In this document: positions 815 to 17,534 of the stretch, piece by piece | How the letters are laid out: each line of letters begins with the position of its first letter | Position numbering within the stretch: the first letter of the stretch is position 1 | Assembly: GCF_000196355.1 (NCBI RefSeq) | Contig: NC_007614.1 | Span: 510,001-542,000, forward strand | Length of the DNA stretch: 32,000 bases | Reading direction: 5' to 3' | Origin: Nitrosospira multiformis ATCC 25196 | Lineage (GTDB): Bacteria > Pseudomonadota > Gammaproteobacteria > Burkholderiales > Nitrosomonadaceae | Position numbers and translations under genes: made by a program | Notes under the pieces: generated by a model | The model's database searches: none | Seen by the model: the letters and a program-made list of their open reading frames with translations, nothing else | What the model was told of the DNA's origin: nothing

Positions 815-1876
815 CTAGTCCAGTGTCGAAAGATAGGAGGCCAGTGCTGAAGCTTCACTGTCCGATAATGCAATACTTGGCATGCGTGCTCCCGGCTTGA
901 AGTATTGTGCGCGGGTAATCCACTCCATCAGGTGATCCGGTGTATTGGTCAACAGTCCGGCAGCAATGCGACCGCGCGAGTTCAGATGCGTGAGATCAGG
1001 ACCGTGCAGGCCTTCCGCTTCCGTTCCACGCACCGCGTGGCATCCCCCGCAGCGATCCATGAACAGCTTGTATCCATGCTCATTGTGTTCTGACACTGGG
1101 AAAGCCGTGCGGCGCTGGGCCTCTTGCCATTTCTCGAAATCCCGATCGCTTTCTGCAATCACTTCCAGATTCATATGGGCGTGGGCCGCTCCACAAAATT
1201 GTGCGCATTGACCGGCATAAATGCCGGGGACGTCTGCCTGAATCCACTTCTGATTGACCAGGCCCGGAATCATTTGAGTTTTTCCGGCGAGTACAGGTAC
1301 CCAGAACGCATGAATGACGTCCGCGCTTTTCAACTTGAGCAGCACCGGTCTGCCTACAGGTATATGAATTTCATTGGCGGTCACAAAACGTTTCGCCGGA
1401 TCGCCATGCTCGTATTCAATGTTCCACCACCAGTCGTAACCCGTTACGGTCAGGGTGAGGACTGGAGTTTCGGTGGGCTTGGCAACCGCATTGAGCACGG
1501 TCAGGAAATGAACGGTGAGCCCCGCCAATATGAAGGTGGAAATCCCTGTACCGATATAAACCCATTTGAGTCCTCCGCTCTCGGCCCCGATCATGCCGGA
1601 GTCGGCAGAGCTGCGCTTGCGAACTATGGCGATTACCAGTAGCAGTATGACGATAAGGGTAATGGCGGAGAGCAAAGCCGTCATCAGCCACCCCAGATGC
1701 ATTACGGGCGTGGCGGCAGGGCCGTAGCTGTGCAGGAAATAGTTTAAAGGGGTGCTGAGCGTGTCTGCTGCTTCGGATGGTCTTGCAGCGACCATGGATG
1801 GCGCCAGAAGCGTTATCCGGAAACGTAGGTTTTTTATTGCCGGCCTGGAATCGAAACCTGACTTGGAAGCTTTCAT
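815..1876 (-). CDS. coxB: cytochrome c oxidase subunit II with a fused C-terminal mono-heme cytochrome c domain
   Basis: Two N-terminal TM segments. CuA site ...HAFWVP...CAQFCGAAHAHM. C-terminal CGGCH heme-c motif (DRCGGCHAVRG) with a distal Met (ARMPS). Lies immediately upstream of coxA. Confidence 0.9.
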   Translation of the reverse strand: MKASKSGFDSRPAIKNLRFRITLLAPSMVAARPSEAADTLSTPLNYFLHSYGPAATPVMHLGWLMTALLSAITLIVILLLVIAIVRKRSSADSGMIGAESGGLKWVYIGTGISTFILAGLTVHFLTVLNAVAKPTETPVLTLTVTGYDWWWNIEYEHGDPAKRFVTANEIHIPVGRPVLLKLKSADVIHAFWVPVLAGKTQMIPGLVNQKWIQADVPGIYAGQCAQFCGAAHAHMNLEVIAESDRDFEKWQEAQRRTAFPVSEHNEHGYKLFMDRCGGCHAVRGTEAEGLHGPDLTHLNSRGRIAAGLLTNTPDHLMEWITRAQYFKPGARMPSIALSDSEASALASYLSTLD

Positions 1877-2113
1877 GGCTTAACCAACTCCAGTGTACGC
1901 AGAGATGCAGCGATAAGCGCGATTCCGACTGCGACGGAGTGACCAAAGGCCGAACGGACTGCAAGAGAATATCGAGGTCCGTTAACCTGTGCTGGCGTGC
2001 GGTCAGGATACACTTTCCAGCATTCAGGGACCGACGATATCGCAGTGTTTTCAAAGATTCTACGCTGCTCCCTCCATGCTTCTGTGCGCTAGCGTACGTA
2101 GAGTTTCAAAAGA

Positions 2114-2145
2114 CCCCTGAACAGGTCAGCACTCCTGTTCAGGGG
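2114..2145 (-). terminator. rho-independent terminator candidate downstream of the first carbonic anhydrase gene
   Basis: Perfect 12-bp stem CCCCTGAACAGG / CCTGTTCAGGGG with an 8-nt loop. On the minus strand it is followed by TCTTTTGAAAC. It lies about 100 nt after the stop at 2247. Confidence 0.55.
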
Positions 2146-2246
2146 GATGGTCCCTAATGCTCTTCCAGTTTGCGGTTTGGAGGGAGGCCGGAAAACAGGC
2201 GCTACATTGCCGGAACCGACCGGAAACACGGGACCTGAAATGCGAT

Positions 2247-3188
2247 TCAGGTTGCTCCAGCGAGTCTTGACCCACGCTTGAGGCCAATAAAACTGATTAC
2301 CGCGAGCCCGGCGAGGAGCATGCCATAGGATGACGGTTCGGGAACGCTCGTCGCGAGTTTGGATAAGTCGGCCGTGACAGAAACGCTTGCTTCCAGGCCA
2401 GGGATCAGTGTGCCCAGGAGATTGGGATCGGAGTCATCATGGATGCTGACGAAGCCCGGCACGTCGGTAAGCACGATGCGACCGTTCAAATCCTGAATCT
2501 CGCGCGAATTGCCTTCCGGAAACAGGGACTTGAAGGCATTGATCTGGCTCCCGGATAGATATAGCGGAGAAGCCAGTTCAACCCAGCTTACTCCTTCTGT
2601 AAAAGGCGGCGTCGTCAGAGAACCGGAGTAGCGGAAAGAACCGAGATAATCCGGCAGAAGATTGTTCAGGTTGAAGTGCTCGATATTCAGTGTTTCCTCA
2701 GTAGTTTTCGGCAAATCGGAGAAAATGGGAGCGAGTGCCTGGTTCTTGAAGAGACCTTGCTCGATATCCCGGCCGACCACGAGTAGATTGTTCGCAGCAT
2801 CGCTGAAGACGAGGTGCATTTCCATGGGACTGGCTCGACCGTTTATCAAATGTTCCGAGGGGGTGTGAAAGTGGAATTGAGCAAGGTTCCATTGATGTCC
2901 TGACAACATCAAGGTTCCTCCGCCGGGACTGACATTAGCCCTGATAGTACTTTCGTGATCAGGGGAGCCGTTATTGATCACGGTAAGCGCGGTATCGGAA
3001 TTGAGGTTGAAGTTCAACTTGGGCAAATTTCCGTAATAGGTGCTATTCGAGCGAATATCGATCGGACTTTGTGCTTCCATCAATTCCAGATTGCTCGCCA
3101 GCGTACTCGCATATGCGGTATTGAAGCCCAGCAAGAAAAGGACCGCGGCAAGGACGGCCACCCTCAGGGATCGAGATGTTTCATTCAT
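2247..3188 (-). CDS. secreted alpha-class carbonic anhydrase domain with a C-terminal PEP-CTERM sorting signal (copy 1)
   Basis: Signal peptide MNETSRSLRVAVLAAVLFLLGFNTAYA. Alpha-CA signatures: QSPIDI, AQFHFHTPSEH (two Zn His plus Glu), MEMHLVF (third Zn His), YSGSLTTPP, LNGRIV. C-terminus VPEPSSYGMLLAGLAVISFIGLKRGSR is PEP, then a TM helix, then basic residues. RBS GAGG lies 7 nt before the ATG. Confidence 0.8.
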   Translation of the reverse strand: MNETSRSLRVAVLAAVLFLLGFNTAYASTLASNLELMEAQSPIDIRSNSTYYGNLPKLNFNLNSDTALTVINNGSPDHESTIRANVSPGGGTLMLSGHQWNLAQFHFHTPSEHLINGRASPMEMHLVFSDAANNLLVVGRDIEQGLFKNQALAPIFSDLPKTTEETLNIEHFNLNNLLPDYLGSFRYSGSLTTPPFTEGVSWVELASPLYLSGSQINAFKSLFPEGNSREIQDLNGRIVLTDVPGFVSIHDDSDPNLLGTLIPGLEASVSVTADLSKLATSVPEPSSYGMLLAGLAVISFIGLKRGSRLAGAT

Positions 3189-3570
3189 AAAATGACCTCG
3201 CGAAAATAGATGTTCATAGGGTTTATAGGATGAAAATTCTAAAAGCTTGAGAAATTCCGAATGATCGGTTCCAGCGCTCGTCAGACGGGAGAGCAGCCGG
3301 TTGGAACAGACGGGGAAGATGAGCTGGTGCTTGGCCAGTCGCTGTTGTTATGAGCCACCGAAGCCGGCAGCCGCTCCACGCACGAAACCTGCTGTGGACT
3401 CGAAACCTTGCGAAGAACGACACCCGGATGGTGACGGAAGGGCCCTTTTCATGCAGCCGGTGATGTTACGAACCGTACAGGGCCGAATGGCCTGCTTTGT
3501 CAGACTTTCGGTCAGCCTTCTATTGCAGACTCTTGTTCAAATGGAAGTTGATACACTTCTTCACGTTCGA

Positions 3571-3622
3571 CTCGTCCGTTATGAGTCCCTCCACTTGCAT
3601 GGAGGGACTCATAACGGACGAG
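3571..3622 (-). terminator. 23-bp perfect inverted repeat, 4 nt downstream of the porin stop (3' hairpin; no U-tract)
   Basis: CTCGTCCGTTATGAGTCCCTCCA (3571-3593), loop CTTGCA, then the exact reverse complement (3600-3622). No T-run follows on either strand, so it is not a textbook intrinsic terminator. Confidence 0.45.
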
Positions 3623-3626
3623 ACTG

Positions 3627-5219
3627 TCAGAAGGCAATCTGATACTGCAGGACGAATTGATTCCTGTTTGAAATTTTGTATCCGGCTGAGTTGAATATGG
3701 GCCGGTTCTGGATATCGAAAGTCAGCTTGCTGTTATGTCCCTTGATCAGCCAGTTTATCCCGCCATTGAATACATTCATCTGATCATGCAGACGGTCAAA
3801 ATCCGCGCTGATGAAAGAGAAGTAAGGCATCAACTGGCCATTGTTTCCGCCGAGCAGATCCTTGGGCAGCAGATATCCTATCTGCCCGTACCATTGATTG
3901 CCTGTGCCAAACATGGGAAAGGCATTGCCGCCGGTACTGGCCGGGTTCACCCCGTTGCCGTTCATGCGCAGATAGTTGGGGCCATAATCGGTATTGAAGT
4001 AACCGATATAAGCGGAAATAGCAGTTTCCTTCACCTTGTCTACCGGGGCATCCAGATAAGCTGCAACCGACCACAAATTCATATCGTGAAACTGGGCTGC
4101 TGCCTCCGTAAGGCCGGTCCAGGTCGCATTTTTTTGGGTAATGAAACCTCCTTCCAGGTTCAGGATGCTTTTCTTGCCCAGGTAGGTACCCTGCATGTAT
4201 GGATTGGTCATCGGCTCCTTATCCCAGAAATTCCACATGAAAAACCCCTGGTATTGTTTCCTGTGGCCGGTTCGAGCAAATTGGGCATTTACCGGGGAAA
4301 TGATTTCAGGAGGAAGCCCGGCAGTATTGATGGGGAACGGGTCACTTGCCGTAAAGCGATAATTGAGGGGACCAATCTGCCCTCTGAGGTAGACGCTCAG
4401 CTTACGGTTGAATTGGTCAGTACGATCAGCAGTTGCCTGAGCCACCAGTGGCACATCCATCGTCATGATCGTGCTCACGCTGGGGCTGCTGAAGCGGGAA
4501 AGACCATTGGCCATGACAAGGCCGCCCCCCACGATCATCTGATGTCCCTGGGTCAGCCGTAATTCTCCAAAGGCATCGTGAAAGAAGGATTGAAGTTTTC
4601 TGTTATCGGCGTTCTGACTCAGGAAATTAAAATTGTTCATCCCGTACTGGGTATAAAAATATACCCGGTCAGTCAATTGCCCCTGTAATACAAAACGCGT
4701 ACGGCGCAGGCTGATGTCAGTGACATCGTCCACTGACTCACCCAGCACAGTGGAGCCGGGGTTGGTTTGTTCATACCGCGCCCATACCTGATTCAGGAAG
4801 CCGAATTTGATGTATTGGCTTCCATCCGGATTCAGGTTGAACTTGAACGGGTCCTTCTCTTTCCAGTTCGCGTATCCATATCCTCCCTGTGATTTTTCCT
4901 GGGATTTTTCCACGGATTTCGGGACGTCGCGCACCAGCACGCCCCCCTCGCCCTTTGCCTTGCCGTCAGCAACGACCCCATCCTGGCTCGAGGTGGCCAC
5001 AGGTTTTGCCGGCTTCTCCGGAACTTTTTCAAAGGACCCCATGCGGACACGTCCTTCTCCAGGCTCGGCATAAATCTGTTTTGTTTTGGTATCGACATAG
5101 AGGTCGATGACGTAAGACGCTGCGGTATCGGGCTCTGAAGACGCTGGTTTTTCTTCGGCATACAGCGGAGCTGCAAGCAGGCAACCCGATAACAACACAA
5201 GCGAAGGTTTATATTTCAT
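3627..5219 (-). CDS. outer-membrane beta-barrel porin, probably the phosphate-selective porin O/P-like family
   Basis: Signal peptide MKYKPSLVLLSGCLLAAPLYA/EE. Alternating beta-strand pattern. C-terminal ...FVLQYQIAF (terminal aromatic residue, typical of OMPs). The motif ISLRRTRFVLQGQL resembles the RRARL motif of porin O/P proteins. RBS AGGGAG precedes the ATG. Confidence 0.7.
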   Translation of the reverse strand: MKYKPSLVLLSGCLLAAPLYAEEKPASSEPDTAASYVIDLYVDTKTKQIYAEPGEGRVRMGSFEKVPEKPAKPVATSSQDGVVADGKAKGEGGVLVRDVPKSVEKSQEKSQGGYGYANWKEKDPFKFNLNPDGSQYIKFGFLNQVWARYEQTNPGSTVLGESVDDVTDISLRRTRFVLQGQLTDRVYFYTQYGMNNFNFLSQNADNRKLQSFFHDAFGELRLTQGHQMIVGGGLVMANGLSRFSSPSVSTIMTMDVPLVAQATADRTDQFNRKLSVYLRGQIGPLNYRFTASDPFPINTAGLPPEIISPVNAQFARTGHRKQYQGFFMWNFWDKEPMTNPYMQGTYLGKKSILNLEGGFITQKNATWTGLTEAAAQFHDMNLWSVAAYLDAPVDKVKETAISAYIGYFNTDYGPNYLRMNGNGVNPASTGGNAFPMFGTGNQWYGQIGYLLPKDLLGGNNGQLMPYFSFISADFDRLHDQMNVFNGGINWLIKGHNSKLTFDIQNRPIFNSAGYKISNRNQFVLQYQIAF

Positions 5220-5261
5220 TTGACGCTCCCTTTCTGGTTATGCCAAGTGCTTAATTACCCA

Positions 5262-5338
5262 CATTCAAAAGTGGTAAAGGCTGAGGTTAGGGGGGAAAAA
5301 TAACATGGCATATGTCAAGAAAATGTCATTCAAAAGTG
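5262..5338. repeat. two exact copies of the 12-mer CATTCAAAAGTG in the porin upstream region
   Basis: Copies at 5262-5273 and 5327-5338. A third partial copy, TTCAAAAGTGAAG, lies at 6842-6854 in another intergenic region of the same cluster. Confidence 0.5.
5312..5328. promoter_or_regulatory. tandem direct repeat ATGTCA-N5-ATGTCA (11-bp period) upstream of the porin gene; candidate response-regulator site
   Basis: ATGTCAAGAAAATGTCAT lies 92 nt or more upstream of the porin ATG. The same TGTCA-N6-TGTCA architecture occurs at 7866-7885. Confidence 0.4.
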
Positions 5339-5724
5339 AAGAAATAGTGAATTTCCTACGAAAAAGCAGGAGAATAAGCAAAATGAAATACAGTATATAC
5401 ACGGCGGAATCCGTATGCAAAACGTCTATGACAAGGTATTTTTGGAAAAGTCGGGTCTCTTGGGGTAAAGAATTACATTGGAAAATTGCAACGAATCCTG
5501 GGGTAAACTGATCCGTTTCGTTGGAAATGAGCGAACAGCTGAAGGCTCTGGCGGGGAAAACAGAAGGGCGAGCTGCCGGATTCTGAGGGGGGATGGGACG
5601 TAACGACGCGAAACCAGACGCTGGGGAATGAGGGGGAGCATCCCAAAAGCCAAAAGCGGGAATGAGTCCTCGCTCCGCACCCGTCAACAGTAGAAAACAG
5701 GCGTTCGGGCCCGATTCCGGCCTC

Positions 5725-6123
5725 TCAACCGCCGCCCGCACCCCCCGCTGAAATATTGGTATCTACGTCCGGGTTTGGAGGACTGGGGGCAGGCGCCACA
5801 AAGAAGCGGAGAATTCTATGCAGGAGGTCTTTCCGAGGCTCGATATCCTGCGGACAGGGAGCGGTACTTTTTTCTGCGGCCTGTCCCTCTTCTGGCGCAT
5901 TCTCGTGCCCGGCTGCCGCTTTCCCATTCGGAGAGACGGCATTTCCAGAGGTCGCTTCCTGACAGTCGACCTGCACAGCGTTCTGATGAGATGCAATCAG
6001 TGTCTGGAAAGCGGATGGAGAGGGGCGTTCATCCCCGGGCATATCGGCAGCGATAGGAGGGGACAGGACAGCGGCCGAAAAAAACAGCAACCCACCGAAG
6101 AGGATGGAACGGAAAATGCTCAT
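5725..6123 (-). CDS. small secreted protein of unknown function with the C-terminal NISAGGAGGG module (paralog A)
   Basis: Start chosen at MSIFRSILFGGLLFFSAAVLSPPIAA (signal peptide), with AAGGAGG about 9-11 nt upstream. The track start at 6159 has no RBS. The C-terminal ~43 aa is homologous to the neighbouring ORF. Confidence 0.55.
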   Translation of the reverse strand: MSIFRSILFGGLLFFSAAVLSPPIAADMPGDERPSPSAFQTLIASHQNAVQVDCQEATSGNAVSPNGKAAAGHENAPEEGQAAEKSTAPCPQDIEPRKDLLHRILRFFVAPAPSPPNPDVDTNISAGGAGGG

Positions 6124-6177
6124 CAAGCTCAACCCCTCCTTGGTTGGAGCAGGCGCCATCTGCTGCTTAAAACGGAA

Positions 6178-6663
6178 TCAGCCTCCCGCGCCGCCCACGG
6201 AAATATTCTCGTCCATCTCTCGATTGGGTCCACGGGGCGTATCAGGTCCATATAGGATACGCACCATTTTGCAGAGAAAATCCTCCTGCTCGGGCGACGC
6301 ATACTTGCATGAACCGGAGCCCGACTCGGAACCCTGCGCAGGCGCCTCCCATCCCCCGGGAGCATTTGCCCGGTCTGTTGCCTGATCTGTTTGCTGGGGC
6401 ACAGCAGCTTTATCACTCTCTCCCTTTTCAGTCCTGTTTCCCTTTTCTTCATGGGTCCCCGGGGGAAGCTCCCAACCCAGCGCATCCTTTTCCAGCGATT
6501 GATTCCGCTGGTTCGTATCGACAAATATATCCTGTACCCATCTGTTTGCGCGATCTGGCAGATCCGATTGCGCGTGCGACATTCCTGCAGCACCCGAAAT
6601 CATGATGCCGGCAAATAATGCAGTCTGCATCTTCCGCATTGTCAGTATCCGTGGACGTTTCAT
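6178..6663 (-). CDS. small secreted protein of unknown function with the C-terminal NISVGGAGG module (paralog B)
   Basis: Signal peptide ...MRKMQTALFAGIMISGAAGMSHA/QS. The middle is low-complexity and acidic or polar. The C-terminus CKYASPEQEDFLCKMVRILYGPDTPRGPNREMDENISVGGAGG aligns with paralog A. The exact start is uncertain (6663, 6639 or 6630). Confidence 0.55.
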   Translation of the reverse strand: MKRPRILTMRKMQTALFAGIMISGAAGMSHAQSDLPDRANRWVQDIFVDTNQRNQSLEKDALGWELPPGTHEEKGNRTEKGESDKAAVPQQTDQATDRANAPGGWEAPAQGSESGSGSCKYASPEQEDFLCKMVRILYGPDTPRGPNREMDENISVGGAGG

Positions 6664-6737
6664 GGCCTGCCTTCGTTCGAATGAGGGATAGAGCGCATGG
6701 TGCGCGCTTGAGGGTGCGCGGTCAAGGCAGATTTTGC

Positions 6738-6753
6738 GGATTTGTCGAAATCC
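6738..6753. promoter_or_regulatory. palindrome GGATTT-GTCG-AAATCC upstream of the small-protein gene pair; candidate operator
   Basis: Perfect 6-bp arms with a 4-bp spacer, about 75-90 nt upstream of the start at 6663 and downstream of the CA2 hairpin. Confidence 0.3.
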
Positions 6754-6794
6754 TCAAAACTCCGGGGGGAAGGGGGCAAACAAGACTGTTTGAA

Positions 6795-6827
6795 GTGGAT
6801 GAGTACCTACCTTAGGTACTCATCCAC
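6795..6827 (-). terminator. 15-bp perfect hairpin downstream of the second carbonic anhydrase gene
   Basis: GTGGATGAGTACCTA, loop CCT, TAGGTACTCATCCAC. It lies 60 nt after the stop at 6887. On the minus strand it is followed by TTCAAACAGTCTTGTTTG. Confidence 0.5.
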
Positions 6828-6886
6828 GTTGCTTCACGATTTTCAAAAGTGAAGGTTACACGGATCCGAACACGATACAGCCTGCC

Positions 6887-7753
6887 TCATGCAACAGAAC
6901 CGGCGGGTACATCACTGGTTAACGGCCTGCTTTTACCCCTGGCAACAAATGCCATGAGGCATAATCCTGCCAGCATCATCGCGTAAGTTTCAGGTTCGGG
7001 AACGGCGGTGACGAATCCAGGCACATCCGTGAGGACGATGCGTCCGTTGAGATCCTGGATTCCGCGTGCATCCCCTTCGGGAAACAGCGAGCTGAACGCA
7101 TTGATTTGCTCCGAGGACATGAATAGCGGCTGCGATAACATCACCCAGTTGACACCTTCAGAAAACGGCGGTGTGGTGAGCGAACCCGAATAGCGGAAGG
7201 ATTCCAGGTTGGAGGGAATGAGTGTATTGAGGTTGAAGTGGTCGATATGGAGTGTCTCGGAAGTGTTCTGCGGAATCTGGGAGAAAATCGGATCGAGGTC
7301 GCTGTTGAATGCGCCTGCCTGAACCCAGCGGCCAACCACGAGAAGATCCTTATTGCTGTCGCTGAAGACGAGATGCATTTCCATTGGAAATGCCACGCCA
7401 TTCAACAAATGCTCGGAAGGGGTATGAAAGTGAAACTGGGCAAGCTCCCAGTCATGGCCGGAAAGCGTGAGAGAACCTGCACCAGGATTGACATTACCTC
7501 GTACTGCGGTTTTTTCTGGGTCGGGGGAACCGTTGTTGATGACATCAAGTGACGTGTCGGAACTCAGGTTGAAGTTGAGCGCCGGCAGACGACCGAAATA
7601 GGTGCTATCCGAGCGAAAGTCGATGGGGCTTTGCGACTTCATCGCCGCCTGTGCCGATGGAGTGACTTCCGCGTGTGACGTTGACATTCCAAACACCAGA
7701 AGGGCTGAAAAGAGTGCGGTTTGACGCGATAAGCGTAACAGTGACATATTCAT
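6887..7753 (-). CDS. secreted alpha-class carbonic anhydrase domain with a C-terminal PEP-CTERM sorting signal (copy 2)
   Basis: Start moved to MNMSLLRLSRQTALFSALLVFGMSTSHA (signal peptide), with GGAG 5 nt upstream. Same alpha-CA motifs as copy 1: QSPIDF, AQFHFHTPSEH, MEMHLVF, YSGSLTTPP, LNGRIV. C-terminus AVPEPETYAMMLAGLCLMAFVARGKSR. Confidence 0.8.
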   Translation of the reverse strand: MNMSLLRLSRQTALFSALLVFGMSTSHAEVTPSAQAAMKSQSPIDFRSDSTYFGRLPALNFNLSSDTSLDVINNGSPDPEKTAVRGNVNPGAGSLTLSGHDWELAQFHFHTPSEHLLNGVAFPMEMHLVFSDSNKDLLVVGRWVQAGAFNSDLDPIFSQIPQNTSETLHIDHFNLNTLIPSNLESFRYSGSLTTPPFSEGVNWVMLSQPLFMSSEQINAFSSLFPEGDARGIQDLNGRIVLTDVPGFVTAVPEPETYAMMLAGLCLMAFVARGKSRPLTSDVPAGSVA

Positions 7754-7865
7754 CAAGTCTCCAGAATTATGACGCGCATTAGGTGCGCGCCGGGTTATGA
7801 ATAATGAATAAGATGTTGTTGCCACTTTAAACTAGCACAGCAGTTGTGAACTTAATGTCCCTGAA

Positions 7866-7885
7866 TTGTCAGGATTTTGTCAGGA
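7866..7885. promoter_or_regulatory. tandem direct repeat TTGTCAGGA-TT-TTGTCAGGA (11-bp period) upstream of CA copy 2
   Basis: Exact 9-mers at 7866-7874 and 7877-7885, 112 nt or more upstream of the ATG at 7753. Same TGTCA-N6-TGTCA core and same strand as the site at 5312-5328. Confidence 0.4.
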
Positions 7886-8218
7886 GCTTTTAACATCACA
7901 AGGGCAGGAAGGTTCTGAAAAGGATGACCGGATATGTAAAATGCATTTTTCATGAGGATCGGGGGTGGGGAAACGCCAGGAATCCCTTGCCGCCCTTCGG
8001 CACTCTCAGAGCGAACGGAGATCAGGGGTTTGGGTGAACGGGAGATGGAGAAATCGGAGCCAAACTATTAATTCGGGGAGCAAACAGTACAAACGTCATA
8101 CCGTGGGAGACCTGTATCCCATGACGTTCAAAGTACAGCATCATGGGTTCGGGCTGGATTCCGGATCAAGCCTGAAATACGAAATTCATGGGATTTTATG
8201 GTCGGATCAACAGGGCCC

Positions 8219-8256
8219 GTCAATACTCGTTTCACACCGTCGAAACAAGTATTGAC
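8219..8256 (-). terminator. hairpin downstream of zwf
   Basis: 15-bp stem with one mismatch (GTCAATACTCGTTTC / GAAACAAGTATTGAC) and an 8-nt loop, 14 nt after the zwf stop. There is no clear U-tract. Confidence 0.4.
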
Positions 8257-8269
8257 AGGCTAGGGACGC

Positions 8270-9664
8270 CTATCCCGGATTGTGCCAGCAGCCATCCGCC
8301 TCGATCAGCGCGTCGGCTGCGGCGGGGCCCCAACTGCCGCGCTCGTAGGGCAGAACGTGAGGATATGTCTTGAGCACAGGATCGAGTGCTGTCCAGGATG
8401 CCTCCACCGCTTCCCTCTTGGTAAACAGGGTGTCGTCACCAATCATTGCATCATGCAGGAGACGTTCATAAGGCGATTCGCGCCCGAAGTGCTCCTCGAC
8501 CAGGCACAACTCCTGCTGATCGCCTTTGAACTCTTTTCCGGGATGCTTGACTCTCGCTGCAATGGCAACCGCTGAGACGGGAGAAAGGCGGAACCTGAGA
8601 TAATTGGCATCACATGCGGCGCTTGCCGAATCGGCAAAAAGCTTTTGCGGCGGCGGCTTCAGCTGGACAAGGACCTCCGCAGCAGTCTTGGCCAGACACT
8701 TGCCGGAACGCAGATACCAGGGGACCCCTTCCCAGCGCCAGGAGTCGATGAAAAGCCGCAGGGCGCAGAATGTCTCGACATCGGAGTCCTCCGCCACACC
8801 CGGTTCCTGACGGTAGCCCACATATTGTCCCCGCACCAGGTCCTCGGGTACAAGGGGGCGCATGGCGTGAAATATGTTGATTTTTTCGCTTTGGACCGTT
8901 CCGAGACCGCGATAAGCGGGAGGTTCCATGGCCAGCAGCGCAACAATCTGGAAAAGATGATTCTGGATCACGTCGCGCAGGCAGCCGGCGGATTCGTAAA
9001 ATGCGCCTCGTTCTTCAACCCCGAATTCCTCAGCCAATGTGATCTGCACGCTGGCTACATAATTACGATTCCATATCGGTTCCAGAAATGAATTGGCGAA
9101 TCTGAAATAAAGAATATTCATGATCGCCTCTTTTCCGAGAAAATGGTCGATACGGAATATCGCTTCCTCGGGGAACACGGAGCGTGCAATACGGTTCAGT
9201 TCACGTGCTGACTCAAGATCCCGTCCAAAAGGTTTTTCCACAATGACGCGCGCGCCTGCGGCCAGATCGAGCGCACCAAGACCTCTTATGACATTCTCGA
9301 AAAGAAGAGGGGGGATGGCGAGATAGTGCACGGGATGACGTGCATCTCCCAGAGCCTGTTTGAGTGCCTTGAACGTATCGAGGTTGTTGTAGTCTCCACG
9401 CACATATCGCAGCAGGGAAAGGAGGTGATCCAGCGCCCGTTTGTCATCAATCTTTCCGGAGTCGCTGATGGACTGGGTCGCCCGTTCCTTGAGTTGATCG
9501 AGACTCCAGGGTGTCGAGGCGACACCGACCAGCGGCACATCGAGCATGCCCTTTTTGATCATCGCGTACAGCGCCGGAAAGATCTTTTTATAAGCGAGGT
9601 CACCCGTTATCCCAAACAGCACCAGTGCATCGGATGGCTTGGTGTAGTCATTGGTTTTTCGCAT
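8270..9664 (-). CDS. zwf: glucose-6-phosphate 1-dehydrogenase
   Basis: N-terminal dinucleotide fold [20 protein letters not shown]. Active-site motif RIDHFLGKE. Strong RBS GGGAGGAG upstream of the ATG. Confidence 0.9.
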
Positions 9665-9868
9665 TTCGTCACTCCTCCCTTCCTGCAGTAAAAGACGAAA
9701 CCTGTTCAGGAGCTGTCGATTGACCGGCTACAGCGGGAATGCCGGTATAAAAACTCTAACTTGCTGAACGACTTTCGGCAGGGGATACCCTGCATGGTCG
9801 CCAGAAATTCGAGGAGGTGATCGTTCTACCTCCCAAAAGAAAAAGACGGAGCATCAAACAAGACTTAT

Positions 9869-11530
9869 TCAGGGGCCGCCCGTGCGGGGCCCTGCGAATG
9901 CGTCCTCGACGATTGTTTGAGCTTCCGCCACAATGCAGCGCAGGTGATCTTTTCCCAAAAAGCTTTCAGCATAAATTTTGTAGATATCTTCCGTGCCGGA
10001 AGGGCGCGCCGCAAACCATCCGTTATCGGCGATGACCTTGATACCACCGATGGAAGCATTGTTGCCGGACGCGCGAGTGAGAATAGTACGAATTGCCTCG
10101 CCTGCTATTTCAGTATGCCTTATCTGATCCGGCGACAGCTTGCTCAAAGTTTTCTTCTGCTCGGGGGTGGCCGGAGCGTCGATACGCTGGAACTCGGATC
10201 GCCCGTATTCGCGTTCAAAACCGCTGTATATCTCGCCTGGATCGCGCTCCGTACGCGCCAGTATTTCACCGGAGAGCAGTGCTGCCGCGATGCCATCCTT
10301 ATCGGTTGTCCAGGTCTTGCCATTGATGCGCAGGAACGAGGCTCCGGCACTTTCTTCTCCGCAAAAACCAAGTGACCTGTTGCCCAAACCCTCCACAAAC
10401 CACTTGAAGCCGACCGGTACTTCATAGAGCCTGCGATCGAGCGCGGCAGTCACGCGGTCAATCATCTGGCTGCTTACCACTGTTTTGCCGACTGCGGTAT
10501 TCGAAGCCCACTCATGGCGGGACTGGAAGAGGTAGTGGACAGCAACAGAAAGATAATGATCCGCAGGAAGTAAACCGCTGCTCCGGGTAACGATTCCATG
10601 CCGGTCATGATCGGTATCACATGCGAAAGCAATGTCGAAGCGGTCTTTCATATTCAGCATGCCGCGCATCGCATACCGGGAAGACGGATCCATGCGAATT
10701 TTGCCGTCCCAATCCAGTGTCATAAAACGGAAAGTCGGATCTACCTGATTGTTGACCACGGTCATGTTCAGCTTGTAGCGCTCCGCGATTGCGCTCCAGT
10801 AGTGAACGCCCGCGCCGCCGAGCGGGTCAACACCCATGTGGATCTTCGAATCAGATATGACTTTCGTATCCACAACGTTCTGCAGATCGGCAACGTAACT
10901 GTTGAGGAAGTCGTGCCGGTGGGTGGTATCCGCATGCAACGCCTTCTCGAAAGACATTCTCTTTACATCTGACAAATTCCTTTCGAGGAAGGTGTTGGAT
11001 CTGGATTCGATCCAGGAGGTGACCTCGACTCCAGCCGGTCCCCCATGTGGCGGATTGTATTTGAAGCCCCCGCTCTCAGGAGGGTTGTGGGAAGGTGTGA
11101 TGACAATCCCATCTGCCAGCCCGTGCGTGCGGCCCTCGTTGTAAGTCAGTATGGCATGGGAAACTGCCGGAGTGGGGGTATACTCGTCGTTCGCGGCAAG
11201 CATGACTTCCACGTCATTGGCAGCCAGCACTTCCAGAGCGCTTGCATAGGCGGGTTCCGACAATGCATGAGTATCGATTCCGAGGAACAGGGGACCGTCG
11301 ATATCGTGTTGTTTGCGGTATTGGCAGATCGCTTGCGTAATGGCGAGAATGTGCCATTCATTGAAACTGCCCTCCAATGACGAACCACGATGCCCCGAAG
11401 TCCCGAACACAACCCGCTCCCCAGGCAGGTTCGAGTCGGGGATACGGGTATAATAGGCGGTGACAAGCCGGGGCACATTCACCAGCATCTCGGGTTGGGC
11501 GGGGTTTCCGGCGTTAGGATTTATTTTCAT
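9869..11530 (-). CDS. pgm: phosphoglucomutase (alpha-D-phosphohexomutase superfamily)
   Basis: 553 aa. Active-site loop VITPSHNPPESGGFKYN. Mg site FACDTDHDRHG. The N-terminus MKINPNAGNPAQPEMLVNVPRLVTAYY is collinear with enterobacterial Pgm. Confidence 0.9.
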   Translation of the reverse strand: MKINPNAGNPAQPEMLVNVPRLVTAYYTRIPDSNLPGERVVFGTSGHRGSSLEGSFNEWHILAITQAICQYRKQHDIDGPLFLGIDTHALSEPAYASALEVLAANDVEVMLAANDEYTPTPAVSHAILTYNEGRTHGLADGIVITPSHNPPESGGFKYNPPHGGPAGVEVTSWIESRSNTFLERNLSDVKRMSFEKALHADTTHRHDFLNSYVADLQNVVDTKVISDSKIHMGVDPLGGAGVHYWSAIAERYKLNMTVVNNQVDPTFRFMTLDWDGKIRMDPSSRYAMRGMLNMKDRFDIAFACDTDHDRHGIVTRSSGLLPADHYLSVAVHYLFQSRHEWASNTAVGKTVVSSQMIDRVTAALDRRLYEVPVGFKWFVEGLGNRSLGFCGEESAGASFLRINGKTWTTDKDGIAAALLSGEILARTERDPGEIYSGFEREYGRSEFQRIDAPATPEQKKTLSKLSPDQIRHTEIAGEAIRTILTRASGNNASIGGIKVIADNGWFAARPSGTEDIYKIYAESFLGKDHLRCIVAEAQTIVEDAFAGPRTGGP

Positions 11531-16808: not shown

Positions 16809-17534
16809 ATGAATCCCAAGCTTTTGAGACGGTTATCCAGCCTGGCAATAATAGCCACATCCCTTGCTTTTACCGTTCCCGCGGCTGCATATACTTTTCG
16901 GGATGATCCCTCTTCTACCTGGGGCGGCGACTCATTAACCGCAGCCCATACCAATGGGAACGTCTACACGGTCGAAAATCTTTTGGTCCAAAACACCACC
17001 GCGAATTCCCTGCCAGAATTGAACTTCACGATTCCTTTCGCATGGCAGAAGGTCGGCGAGACTTACTTGCCCATGGAATGGCGCAATGACCTGAACGGGT
17101 GGTACACCAGCAATTTCAACGATACTGGAACCAGCCTGACTGTTAAATTAACAAGTCCGGTTGCGGACACCGTAGCCATGGGGGAACTTGCGGATTTGAG
17201 CGGAAGCCGGCAACTCCCGTTGACGGAGCCATGTTTCTCCGGCTCGCCCAGTTGTCAGAGTGGAGTAGGCCGGCCGCCCGAAACCGGTAATACAACGGAT
17301 CTTATCCCTGTTTTTTCATTAGGTTCATTTGCACCAAACGAGGCAAAACGTTTTGATGTCTCGTTCACCTATACTTTCGGGGATAATAGGGCTGGGACCG
17401 ACGGCGCAACAACTTCGTTTTTTGGCTATACCGTTTCTCCCATTCCAGAACCGGGAACCTACGCCATGTTTCTAGTCGGTCTGGGCATGGTGGTTTTTAT
17501 GGCGCGCCCCAGGAAAGCTGGGATGGGTTCATAG
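16809..17534 (+). CDS. PEP-CTERM-sorted secreted protein of unknown function
   Basis: Signal peptide MNPKLLRRLSSLAIIATSLAFTVPAAA. C-terminus SPIPEPGTYAMFLVGLGMVVFMARPRKAG is PEP, then a TM helix, then basic residues. I do not recognise any domain in the ~180-aa body. Confidence 0.75.
   Translation: MNPKLLRRLSSLAIIATSLAFTVPAAAYTFRDDPSSTWGGDSLTAAHTNGNVYTVENLLVQNTTANSLPELNFTIPFAWQKVGETYLPMEWRNDLNGWYTSNFNDTGTSLTVKLTSPVADTVAMGELADLSGSRQLPLTEPCFSGSPSCQSGVGRPPETGNTTDLIPVFSLGSFAPNEAKRFDVSFTYTFGDNRAGTDGATTSFFGYTVSPIPEPGTYAMFLVGLGMVVFMARPRKAGMGS

Follow-up and report, generated by a model that had tools for sequence, protein, structure and literature searches.

What might five consecutive genes for exported proteins do side by side in an ammonia oxidizer? 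The question is raised by a 32-kb stretch of Nitrosospira multiformis DNA, which we call the window and whose positions are used for all coordinates below. The five open reading frames (ORFs) all lie on the minus strand at 2247-7825, between coxB (815-1876) and zwf (8270-9664), with cox on one side of the cluster and zwf and pgm on the other. The same 20-kb stretch is present in two N. multiformis assemblies. The genes encode two alpha-class carbonic anhydrases (CAs) that carry the PEP-CTERM sorting signal, a porin and two small secreted proteins, given here in map order with lengths in amino acids (aa):

2247-3188, minus strand: CA1, alpha-CA with PEP-CTERM (PF00194, PF07589) and a 32-aa linker; a clade-specific extra copy
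3627-5219, minus strand: porin, 530 aa, with signal peptide, N-terminal DLYVDTKTKQIYAEPG module, low-complexity linker of ~70 aa and predicted 16-strand barrel
5725-6123, minus strand: small A, secreted, 132 aa counted from MSIFRS; the ORF is open to 6159, and 6123 is the likely true start
6178-6663, minus strand: small B, secreted, 161 aa, with signal peptide, disordered middle and conserved C-terminal module
6887-7753, minus strand: CA2, alpha-CA that has a signal peptide and ends in PEP-CTERM; the open frame reaches a GTG at 7825

We favour the reading that these genes form a co-regulated module of the cell envelope that supplies bicarbonate/CO2 and buffers acid, kept as a conserved neighbourhood and not as an operon. 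Our preference is a tentative one, with a probability that we put at roughly 45%. A broader proposal, which we consider possible though not probable, is that the porin family forms the outer-membrane part of bacterial inorganic-carbon uptake and is selective for bicarbonate, being paired in Bacteroidota with SulP, beta-CA and DabAB, and in Nitrosospira with exosortase-sorted alpha-CAs and two disordered proteins under one OmpR-type regulator.

Profile searches bear out the assignment of both enzymes that a sequence-only reading of this DNA had made. PF00194 matches CA1 and CA2 at 116.8 and 113.8 bits against a cutoff of 27 (E ~1e-33; 1.3e-32 for CA2), and the PEP-CTERM signal is recognized above cutoff in both by PF07589 (27.0 and 31.2 bits, cutoff 20.7) and by TIGR02595 (21.0 and 17.8 bits, cutoff 16). 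The tails, VPEPSSYGMLLAGLAVISFIGLKRGSR and VPEPETYAMMLAGLCLMAFVARGKSR, lie at the extreme C-terminus and consist of the PEP motif, a transmembrane helix and a basic cluster. The two enzymes are 56% identical, and the linker of CA1 stands ahead of its sorting signal. By inspection, Sec-type signal peptides are present on all five proteins of the cluster, and the earlier description of five consecutive minus-strand genes for exported proteins between cox and zwf holds for every ORF. CA2 probably starts at the 7753 ATG, which is preceded by a ribosome-binding site (GGAG, 7759-7762); gene callers also begin the protein at MNMSLL.

The nearest solved structures are bacterial alpha-CAs (4x5s, 4g7a and 1kop; SazCA, SspCA and the Neisseria enzyme). 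Across 12 family members the zinc-binding His 106, 108 and 125 are invariant, together with Glu112 and Thr192/193. In human CA II numbering these correspond to the zinc triad and the Glu106/Thr199 gate, with FHFH...EMH, SEH and LTTPP invariant and aligned to SazCA (4x5s), and judged by these residues CA1 and CA2 look catalytically competent. The proton-shuttle His64 is absent: in place of NNGH the Nitrosospira enzymes have NNGS and a five-residue insert (PDHES/PDPEK), the Ser being invariant in the family. This His is typical of fast alpha-CAs without strictly defining them. The disulfide Cys of periplasmic alpha-CAs is replaced by Phe (PPF versus PPC), and CA1 has zero cysteines.

Public annotation already names both proteins "carbonic anhydrase family protein". 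Like the periplasmic alpha-CAs of Ralstonia eutropha (Caa), Thiomicrospira (Tcr1545), Neisseria and Helicobacter, they belong to the same Pfam family and have a signal peptide, the zinc triad, the Thr/Glu gate and the compact bacterial form, and they may likewise serve envelope CO2/bicarbonate equilibration or pH buffering. What sets them apart is the PEP-CTERM signal, the loss of the disulfide Cys, the Ser and insert at the proton shuttle, and their place beside a dedicated porin. They also match PEP-CTERM/EpsH sorting in their VPEP motif, hydrophobic helix, basic tail and signal peptide, with an exosortase in the genome; N. multiformis EpsH is listed as Nmul_A2521 (Haft 2006, PMC1569441). 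Compared with usual PEP-CTERM proteins, the cargo here would be an enzyme of known activity class. None of the curated PEP-CTERM families in NCBIfam is for a CA, and the named ones all score below cutoff for CA1 and CA2. A further PEP-CTERM protein of 241 aa is encoded at 16809-17534 on the plus strand, ~9 kb from the cluster (PF07589 at 32 bits and no other recognized domain).

The identity of the porin is best approached through its fold. Neither a Pfam search that included Porin_O_P (PF07396) nor a search of the porin family profile against PDB sequences gave any match at E<=1, and among more than 1900 homologues few have a precomputed PF07396 match. The AlphaFold2 model built with 36 homologues has 16 strands and a mean predicted local distance difference test score (pLDDT) of 67, with values of 80-91 over most of the C-terminal half of the barrel and lower ones in the N-terminal extension. 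Its top Foldseek matches are the phosphate/diphosphate porins of Pseudomonas aeruginosa, OprO (4rjw) and OprP (2o4v), at E ~2e-11 and template modelling (TM) scores, target-normalized, of 0.56-0.57; many Arg and Lys residues are invariant in the family. At the level of the predicted fold, the porin is thus an OprP/OprO-like 16-strand barrel whose closest solved structures are anion-specific porins. The label "Porin O/P" given to it at first therefore stands for the fold, for which OprO and OprP are the best structures, and falls for the family model.

The long-form porins of Nitrosospira have an extra N-terminal part of ~100 residues in comparison with short-form relatives of ~444 aa. Within it, at porin residues ~30-66 (window 5020-5130), lies the module DLYVDTKTKQIYAEPGxGRxxMGSFEKV. 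The same module occurs nearly identically in Porin_O_P proteins of Methylobacter/Methylococcaceae, whose barrels are only ~30% identical. It looks transferable, and by analogy it is possibly a trimer-locking strand as in OprP, the N-terminal strand of which reportedly has that role. In addition to the 16-strand barrel, this N-terminal strand motif is a likeness between the window porin and OprP/OprO; the two differ in that their sequences are 11-12% identical, that a Pfam match and pst/pho genes in the surroundings are missing, and that the window porin has a ~100-aa linker and another half-site in its promoter.

Among curated sequence models, the nearest is the equivalog for ExtI (NF040900), to which the porin aligns over its full length with 59.9 bits (E 2e-16), below the cutoff of 150. 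ExtI, of selenite/tellurite uptake in Geobacter, is likewise an oxyanion-related porin adjoining a small protein of unknown function, but the window porin is far under its cutoff (60 versus 150 bits) and has an unrelated gene context.

Independent evidence that links this porin to inorganic carbon comes from its relatives outside the genus. Outside Nitrosospira, the closest are short-form proteins that are 54-61% identical to it and belong to Bacteroidota where the organism is named. We scanned metagenomes with the porin, then mapped SulP, beta-CA and DabA queries and counted those loci whose upstream sequence extends over 2.5 kb or more. SulP, beta-CA or DabA lies within 4 kb of the short-form porin in 32 of 33 loci (SulP in 30, beta-CA in 11, DabA in 12), the porin gene directly following that of a SulP transporter, often with beta-CA and DabAB near. 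Pfam-confirmed cases are the order SulP, beta-CA, porin in Chryseolinea serpens and the order DabA (divergent), SulP, porin in three contigs; one complete island runs DabB-DabA, SulP, porin, beta-CA, SulP. Among distant homologues below 54% identity (for example in Fibrella and Dyadobacter) the association is seen in only 4 of 20. The layout of the islands varies, with beta-CA present or absent and Dab upstream or downstream, while the porin stays beside SulP, and such persistent adjacency within a varying architecture argues for function and not for inheritance alone.

Of these partners, DabAB is known to pump inorganic carbon, and SulP-CA pairs count as classic bicarbonate-transporter candidates (Felce & Saier 2004, cited in PMC1635747). 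Close homologues of the window porin are encoded directly after SulP and beside DabBA, and in Nitrosospira the porin is paired with a CA too. The suggestion of an inorganic-carbon or anion module made from the sequence is therefore strengthened by these islands and by a repeat common to the porin and CA2 promoters, described below, with bicarbonate as the substrate being suggested by the neighbourhood only. In metagenome contigs, apparently of Bacteroidota, the islands have DabB-DabA divergent from a small ORF, a 732-aa SulP and the porin; a beta-CA and a second SulP often come next, with MarC after them (L129, 255-12664; L085-L087 and L105-L148). At its C-terminus the 732-aa SulP is extended by ~230 residues that Pfam does not match.

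If the Nitrosospira genes work together, they do so from separate transcripts. The spacers of the cluster are 220-500 bp long and, as the sequence-only reading had remarked, AT-rich, with a guanine-cytosine (GC) fraction of 0.39-0.42 at 5101-5550 and 0.44 at 7651-7950 against ~0.55 elsewhere. It had also reported three strong hairpins, all of which are there (z scores are against shuffled sequence):

2114-2145, minus strand: hairpin 3' of CA1, intrinsic-terminator-like, 12-bp GC-rich stem and U-run; -23.7 kcal/mol, z -2.6
3571-3622, minus strand: hairpin 3' of the porin, perfect 23-24-bp stem directly after the stop, without a U-tract; -49.1 kcal/mol, z -9.5
6795-6827, minus strand: hairpin 3' of CA2, terminator-like, perfect 15-bp stem; -25.6 kcal/mol, z -5.7

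Strong hairpins after CA2, the porin and CA1, along with the long spacers, mean that the five genes are not a single operon, and the idea that they are has to be given up: these three genes each terminate in a hairpin of their own. Within the cluster only small B and small A, separated by 54 nt, look co-transcribed, so that we predict about four transcription units, namely CA2, small B with small A, the porin, and CA1. Only individually strong hairpins were counted as evidence here; a scan for sigma-70 and terminator consensus sequences was dropped as evidence, its counts being those expected from shuffled sequence. An Rfam scan of 1800-8400 returned nothing at E<=1, so the spacers hold no riboswitch or small RNA of a known kind.

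Separate transcription does not preclude common control, and two of the promoters share an element. The motif TGACA-N6-TGACA on the gene strand (TGTCA-N6-TGTCA on the plus strand) has two exact sites in the 32-kb window against 0.02 expected, one 94-109 nt upstream of the porin ATG and the other 114-129 nt upstream of the CA2 ATG, both with a third repeat in 11-bp phase:

5297-5340, minus strand: porin promoter element, TTCAC-N7-TGACA-N6-TGACA, 10 nt, then TATTTT; 94-121 nt upstream of the ATG
7856-7882, minus strand: putative CA2 operator, TGACA-N6-TGACA-N6-GGACA, three direct repeats in 11-bp phase; ~105-130 nt upstream of the ATG

The porin element is a conserved block across eight aligned spacers from Nitrosospira and Nitrosovibrio. 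Nitrosospira-lineage loci totalling 758 kb contain 26 exact copies of the motif where 1.2 are expected, all 26 in sense orientation, with 21 upstream of porins and five upstream of CAs. Orthologues of CA2 in other species have a weaker TnACA-N6-TnACA at the same position. The motif is absent upstream of small B, and in the 758-kb scan the porin paralogue that lies beside an ABC importer (see below) has no exact copy. A conserved repeat common to the porin and CA2 promoters is good evidence for one regulator of both, and a TATTTT placed ~10 nt after the repeats, as at the porin promoter, is a geometry characteristic of OmpR/PhoB-family activation. CA2 and the porin thus probably answer to one regulator, putatively of OmpR/PhoB type. 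The sequence-only reading had noted shared repeat motifs in the cluster, and this promoter repeat, together with the related C-termini of small A and small B, gives that remark its substance.

The promoter geometry and the porin fold together raise the question of whether the cluster is instead a phosphate-starvation module, in which an OprP/OprO-type phosphate channel would be under PhoB and matrix-anchored CAs would be co-induced, for example to dissolve mineral phosphate via carbonic acid. OprO and OprP are the best structural matches, the spacing of repeats and TATTTT is what PhoB-family activation typically shows, and the reverse complement of the Nitrosospira repeat, TGTCA-N6-TGTCA, is the core of the Pho box. 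Moreover, the N-terminal DLYVDTKTKQIYAEPG module is common to the window porin and Methylobacter Porin_O_P proteins whose promoters have textbook tandem Pho boxes. On the gene strand, however, the Nitrosospira half-site is TGACA and not the sense TGTCA of Methylobacter, which implies either an inverted site or a different regulator, and PhoB is accordingly possible but not favoured for these repeats. In addition, the porin misses the Porin_O_P model entirely, its barrel identity is 28-36% to the Methylobacter porins versus ~60% to those linked to inorganic carbon, and there are no pst or pho genes nearby. We regard a phosphate role as improbable.

The Methylobacter loci, which hold SulP, beta-CA, a two-component system and a porin, were also considered as a third line of inorganic-carbon association and rejected. 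Their porins are true Porin_O_P proteins (PF07396 at 1e-39 to 1e-59), have only the N-terminal module in common with the window porin (the 28-36% barrel identity extends over ~200 residues), and have canonical Pho boxes in tandem; the repeat at the SulP/beta-CA promoter is not the same. The genes for these OprP-like porins have three to four tandem boxes (CTGTCAT, 11-bp phase) ~60-90 nt upstream of the start (L057 at ~9850-9895; L055, L060, L072, L079 and L080), and the repeat in the nearby divergent promoter of SulP/beta-CA and a response regulator is AACCTTTCAAnAACCTTTC. By their sequences, the Methylobacter porins are phosphate porins.

How far the cluster itself is conserved was surveyed by scanning one genome per species with the porin and then mapping all window proteins onto the loci. 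The recurrent order in Nitrosospira and Nitrosovibrio is pgm, zwf, CA2, small B, small A, porin, (CA1), cox, and a core of CA2, small B, small A and porin is conserved in most genome and metagenome loci, in agreement with the conserved neighbourhood that the module would lead one to expect. Of the 39 long-form loci with enough flank, 25 have an alpha-CA within 4 kb of the porin. Eleven of the 14 loci without one represent a separate porin paralogue beside an ABC importer of the NitT/TauT type. CA1 downstream of the porin is found in N. multiformis-like loci only (L006-L009, L032, L033 and L091); in Nv4 and Nv6 both CAs are upstream of the porin, and most species have the CA2 type only. The picture of two CAs bracketing the porin is thus accurate for the N. 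multiformis clade and fails elsewhere, down to the absence of an adjacent CA in Nsp8. We propose that CA1 arose recently as a paralogue and is controlled separately.

That separate porin paralogue of Nitrosospira (62-68% identity) is encoded after the NitT/TauT-type ABC importer, whose binding protein has 485 aa, and after genes for a HEAT-repeat and a DUF971 protein. The same loci have, upstream, genes for a GntR regulator, a flavoprotein and a ferredoxin (L083, 116-11039; L014, L021, L022, L025, L027, L034 and L049), and in Nsp5 another PEP-CTERM protein is encoded downstream.

Conserved order can also be read as neighbourhood by descent only, with the CAs being general exported enzymes, the porin serving some other solute (urea, short-chain amides as in FmdC, sulfonates or other anions), and no functional unit existing. 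Several observations weigh against the module, and many of these suit descent equally well. The genes are in separate transcription units with strong hairpins and 220-500-bp spacers between them. Synteny within one genus is not proof of function, since the housekeeping genes pgm, zwf and cox flanking the cluster are kept in the same order as well. N. briensis Nsp8 and one Nv17 locus (L010, L046) keep the small proteins and the porin with no adjacent CA, and the position of CA1 varies. Some homologues of the porin bear the name "short chain amide porin" in UniRef; the nearest curated model is ExtI, for which the ExtI paper gives FmdC as the nearest characterized relative. The porin paralogue adjoining a sulfonate/nitrate-type ABC importer indicates that the substrate may vary within the family. 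As for the context of FmdC (TCDB 1.B.16, a urea/short-chain amide porin), there are no urease or amidase genes in the window.

Other points against the module concern its parts. The 32-kb window has no SulP, beta-CA or DabA gene, and in this it differs from the inner-membrane SulP-CA and DabAB systems, its own CAs being of alpha class and exported. The SulP proteins beside the related porins are below every specific NCBIfam cutoff, so that bicarbonate is not proven as their substrate. TGACA-N6-TGACA is absent upstream of CA1, where there is only a TGACC-N7-TGACA ~310-325 nt upstream of the start. The Ser at the proton-shuttle position may reduce CA turnover, and the final location of PEP-CTERM proteins in general has not been established by experiment. 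Descent alone, on the other hand, does not account well for the recurrence of beta-CA, SulP and DabAB beside the closest porin homologues outside Nitrosospira, nor for a conserved operator-like repeat that stands at the porin and CA2 promoters and essentially nowhere else in 758 kb. On balance we consider it rather unlikely that shared ancestry is the whole explanation.

The two small proteins are peculiar to this lineage. Small A and small B are paralogous through their C-terminal ~50 residues (37% identity, E 4e-9), which form a module given for B as C-x11-C...RILYGPDTPRGPNRDxDxNISAGGAGG, with a short amphipathic helix. The terminal DxDxNISAGGAGG is invariant family-wide, is preceded by GPN and ends exactly at the stop (module at 6178-6330 in B and 5725-5880 in A); the DxDxN part is reminiscent of a calcium-binding loop or a processing tag, and nothing backs either likeness. 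Neither protein has a Pfam or NCBIfam match, neither is related to the small ORFs beside SulP in Bacteroidota, and a collection of 1.84 billion proteins yields only 36 representatives of the family. The AlphaFold2 model of small B is disordered apart from one short helix at 129-138. In all three contigs inspected, the small proteins are a tandem pair upstream of a long-form porin, and we propose that they are lineage-specific partners of that porin form.

The long-form porin with its two small partners was found only in sequences of the Nitrosospira lineage, and this, in an ammonia oxidizer, brings in another possibility, that the porin is an exit route for the large flux of nitrite arising in the periplasm while the CAs manage the accompanying protons. 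The fold of an anion-specific porin would suit such a role in this host. No nitrogen-oxide genes are adjacent, however, the closest homologues stand beside inorganic-carbon transporters in Bacteroidota that do not nitrify, and the idea is purely inferential; we think it very improbable.

In the mechanism that we infer for the bicarbonate/CO2 module, which extends to substrate, enzyme location, direction of flux, regulator and physiological trigger, the porin would be an anion channel that passes bicarbonate across the outer membrane. The CAs would be exported by Sec, presumably processed by exosortase and kept at the envelope or in the exopolysaccharide matrix, where they would catalyse HCO3- + H+ <-> CO2 + H2O. 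Acid from periplasmic ammonia oxidation would be met by bicarbonate buffering, sped up by the module, and the resulting CO2 would diffuse inward to cytoplasmic RubisCO; N. multiformis is not known to have carboxysomes. An OmpR/PhoB-family regulator acting on the TGACA direct repeats would switch CA2 and the porin on together. There are precedents for such a use of alpha-CAs at the periplasm: the enzyme of the autotroph R. eutropha is important for CO2 metabolism (PMC4210718), and that of Thiomicrospira has been proposed to hold periplasmic inorganic carbon at equilibrium (PMC1635747).

Two further sequence features were noticed in and beside the cluster. A strong 19-20-bp hairpin lies at 8215-8260, directly 3' of the zwf stop (-30.9 kcal/mol, z -5.2; no clear U-run). 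A 23-nt direct repeat, 83% identical between its copies, is found at 5698-5720, just 3' of the small A stop, and at 8142-8164, in the spacer between zwf and CA2.

In the open-access and preprint literature we found no PEP-CTERM carbonic anhydrase, no description of the five-gene cluster, the small-protein family or the TGACA operator, no porin in SulP/Dab islands or other outer-membrane partner of these systems, and no expression data on these N. multiformis genes. The parts are all of known classes and the CAs were already annotated; the main value of the locus, in our view, is that it offers a testable candidate for an outer-membrane bicarbonate channel. Work on inorganic carbon has centred on inner-membrane pumps (BicA/SulP, SbtA, Cmp and DabAB) and on carboxysomes, and the crossing of the outer membrane by charged bicarbonate has been little studied; if the selectivity for bicarbonate is borne out, a porin family that travels with those transporters would supply the outer-membrane step. 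The CAs, for their part, are a concrete enzyme cargo with which to study the poorly understood PEP-CTERM/exosortase pathway. For ammonia oxidizers, an envelope CA with a channel beside it would bear both on the acquisition of carbon and on coping with the acid that the cells make themselves, a constraint on nitrification where soils or reactors are poorly buffered.

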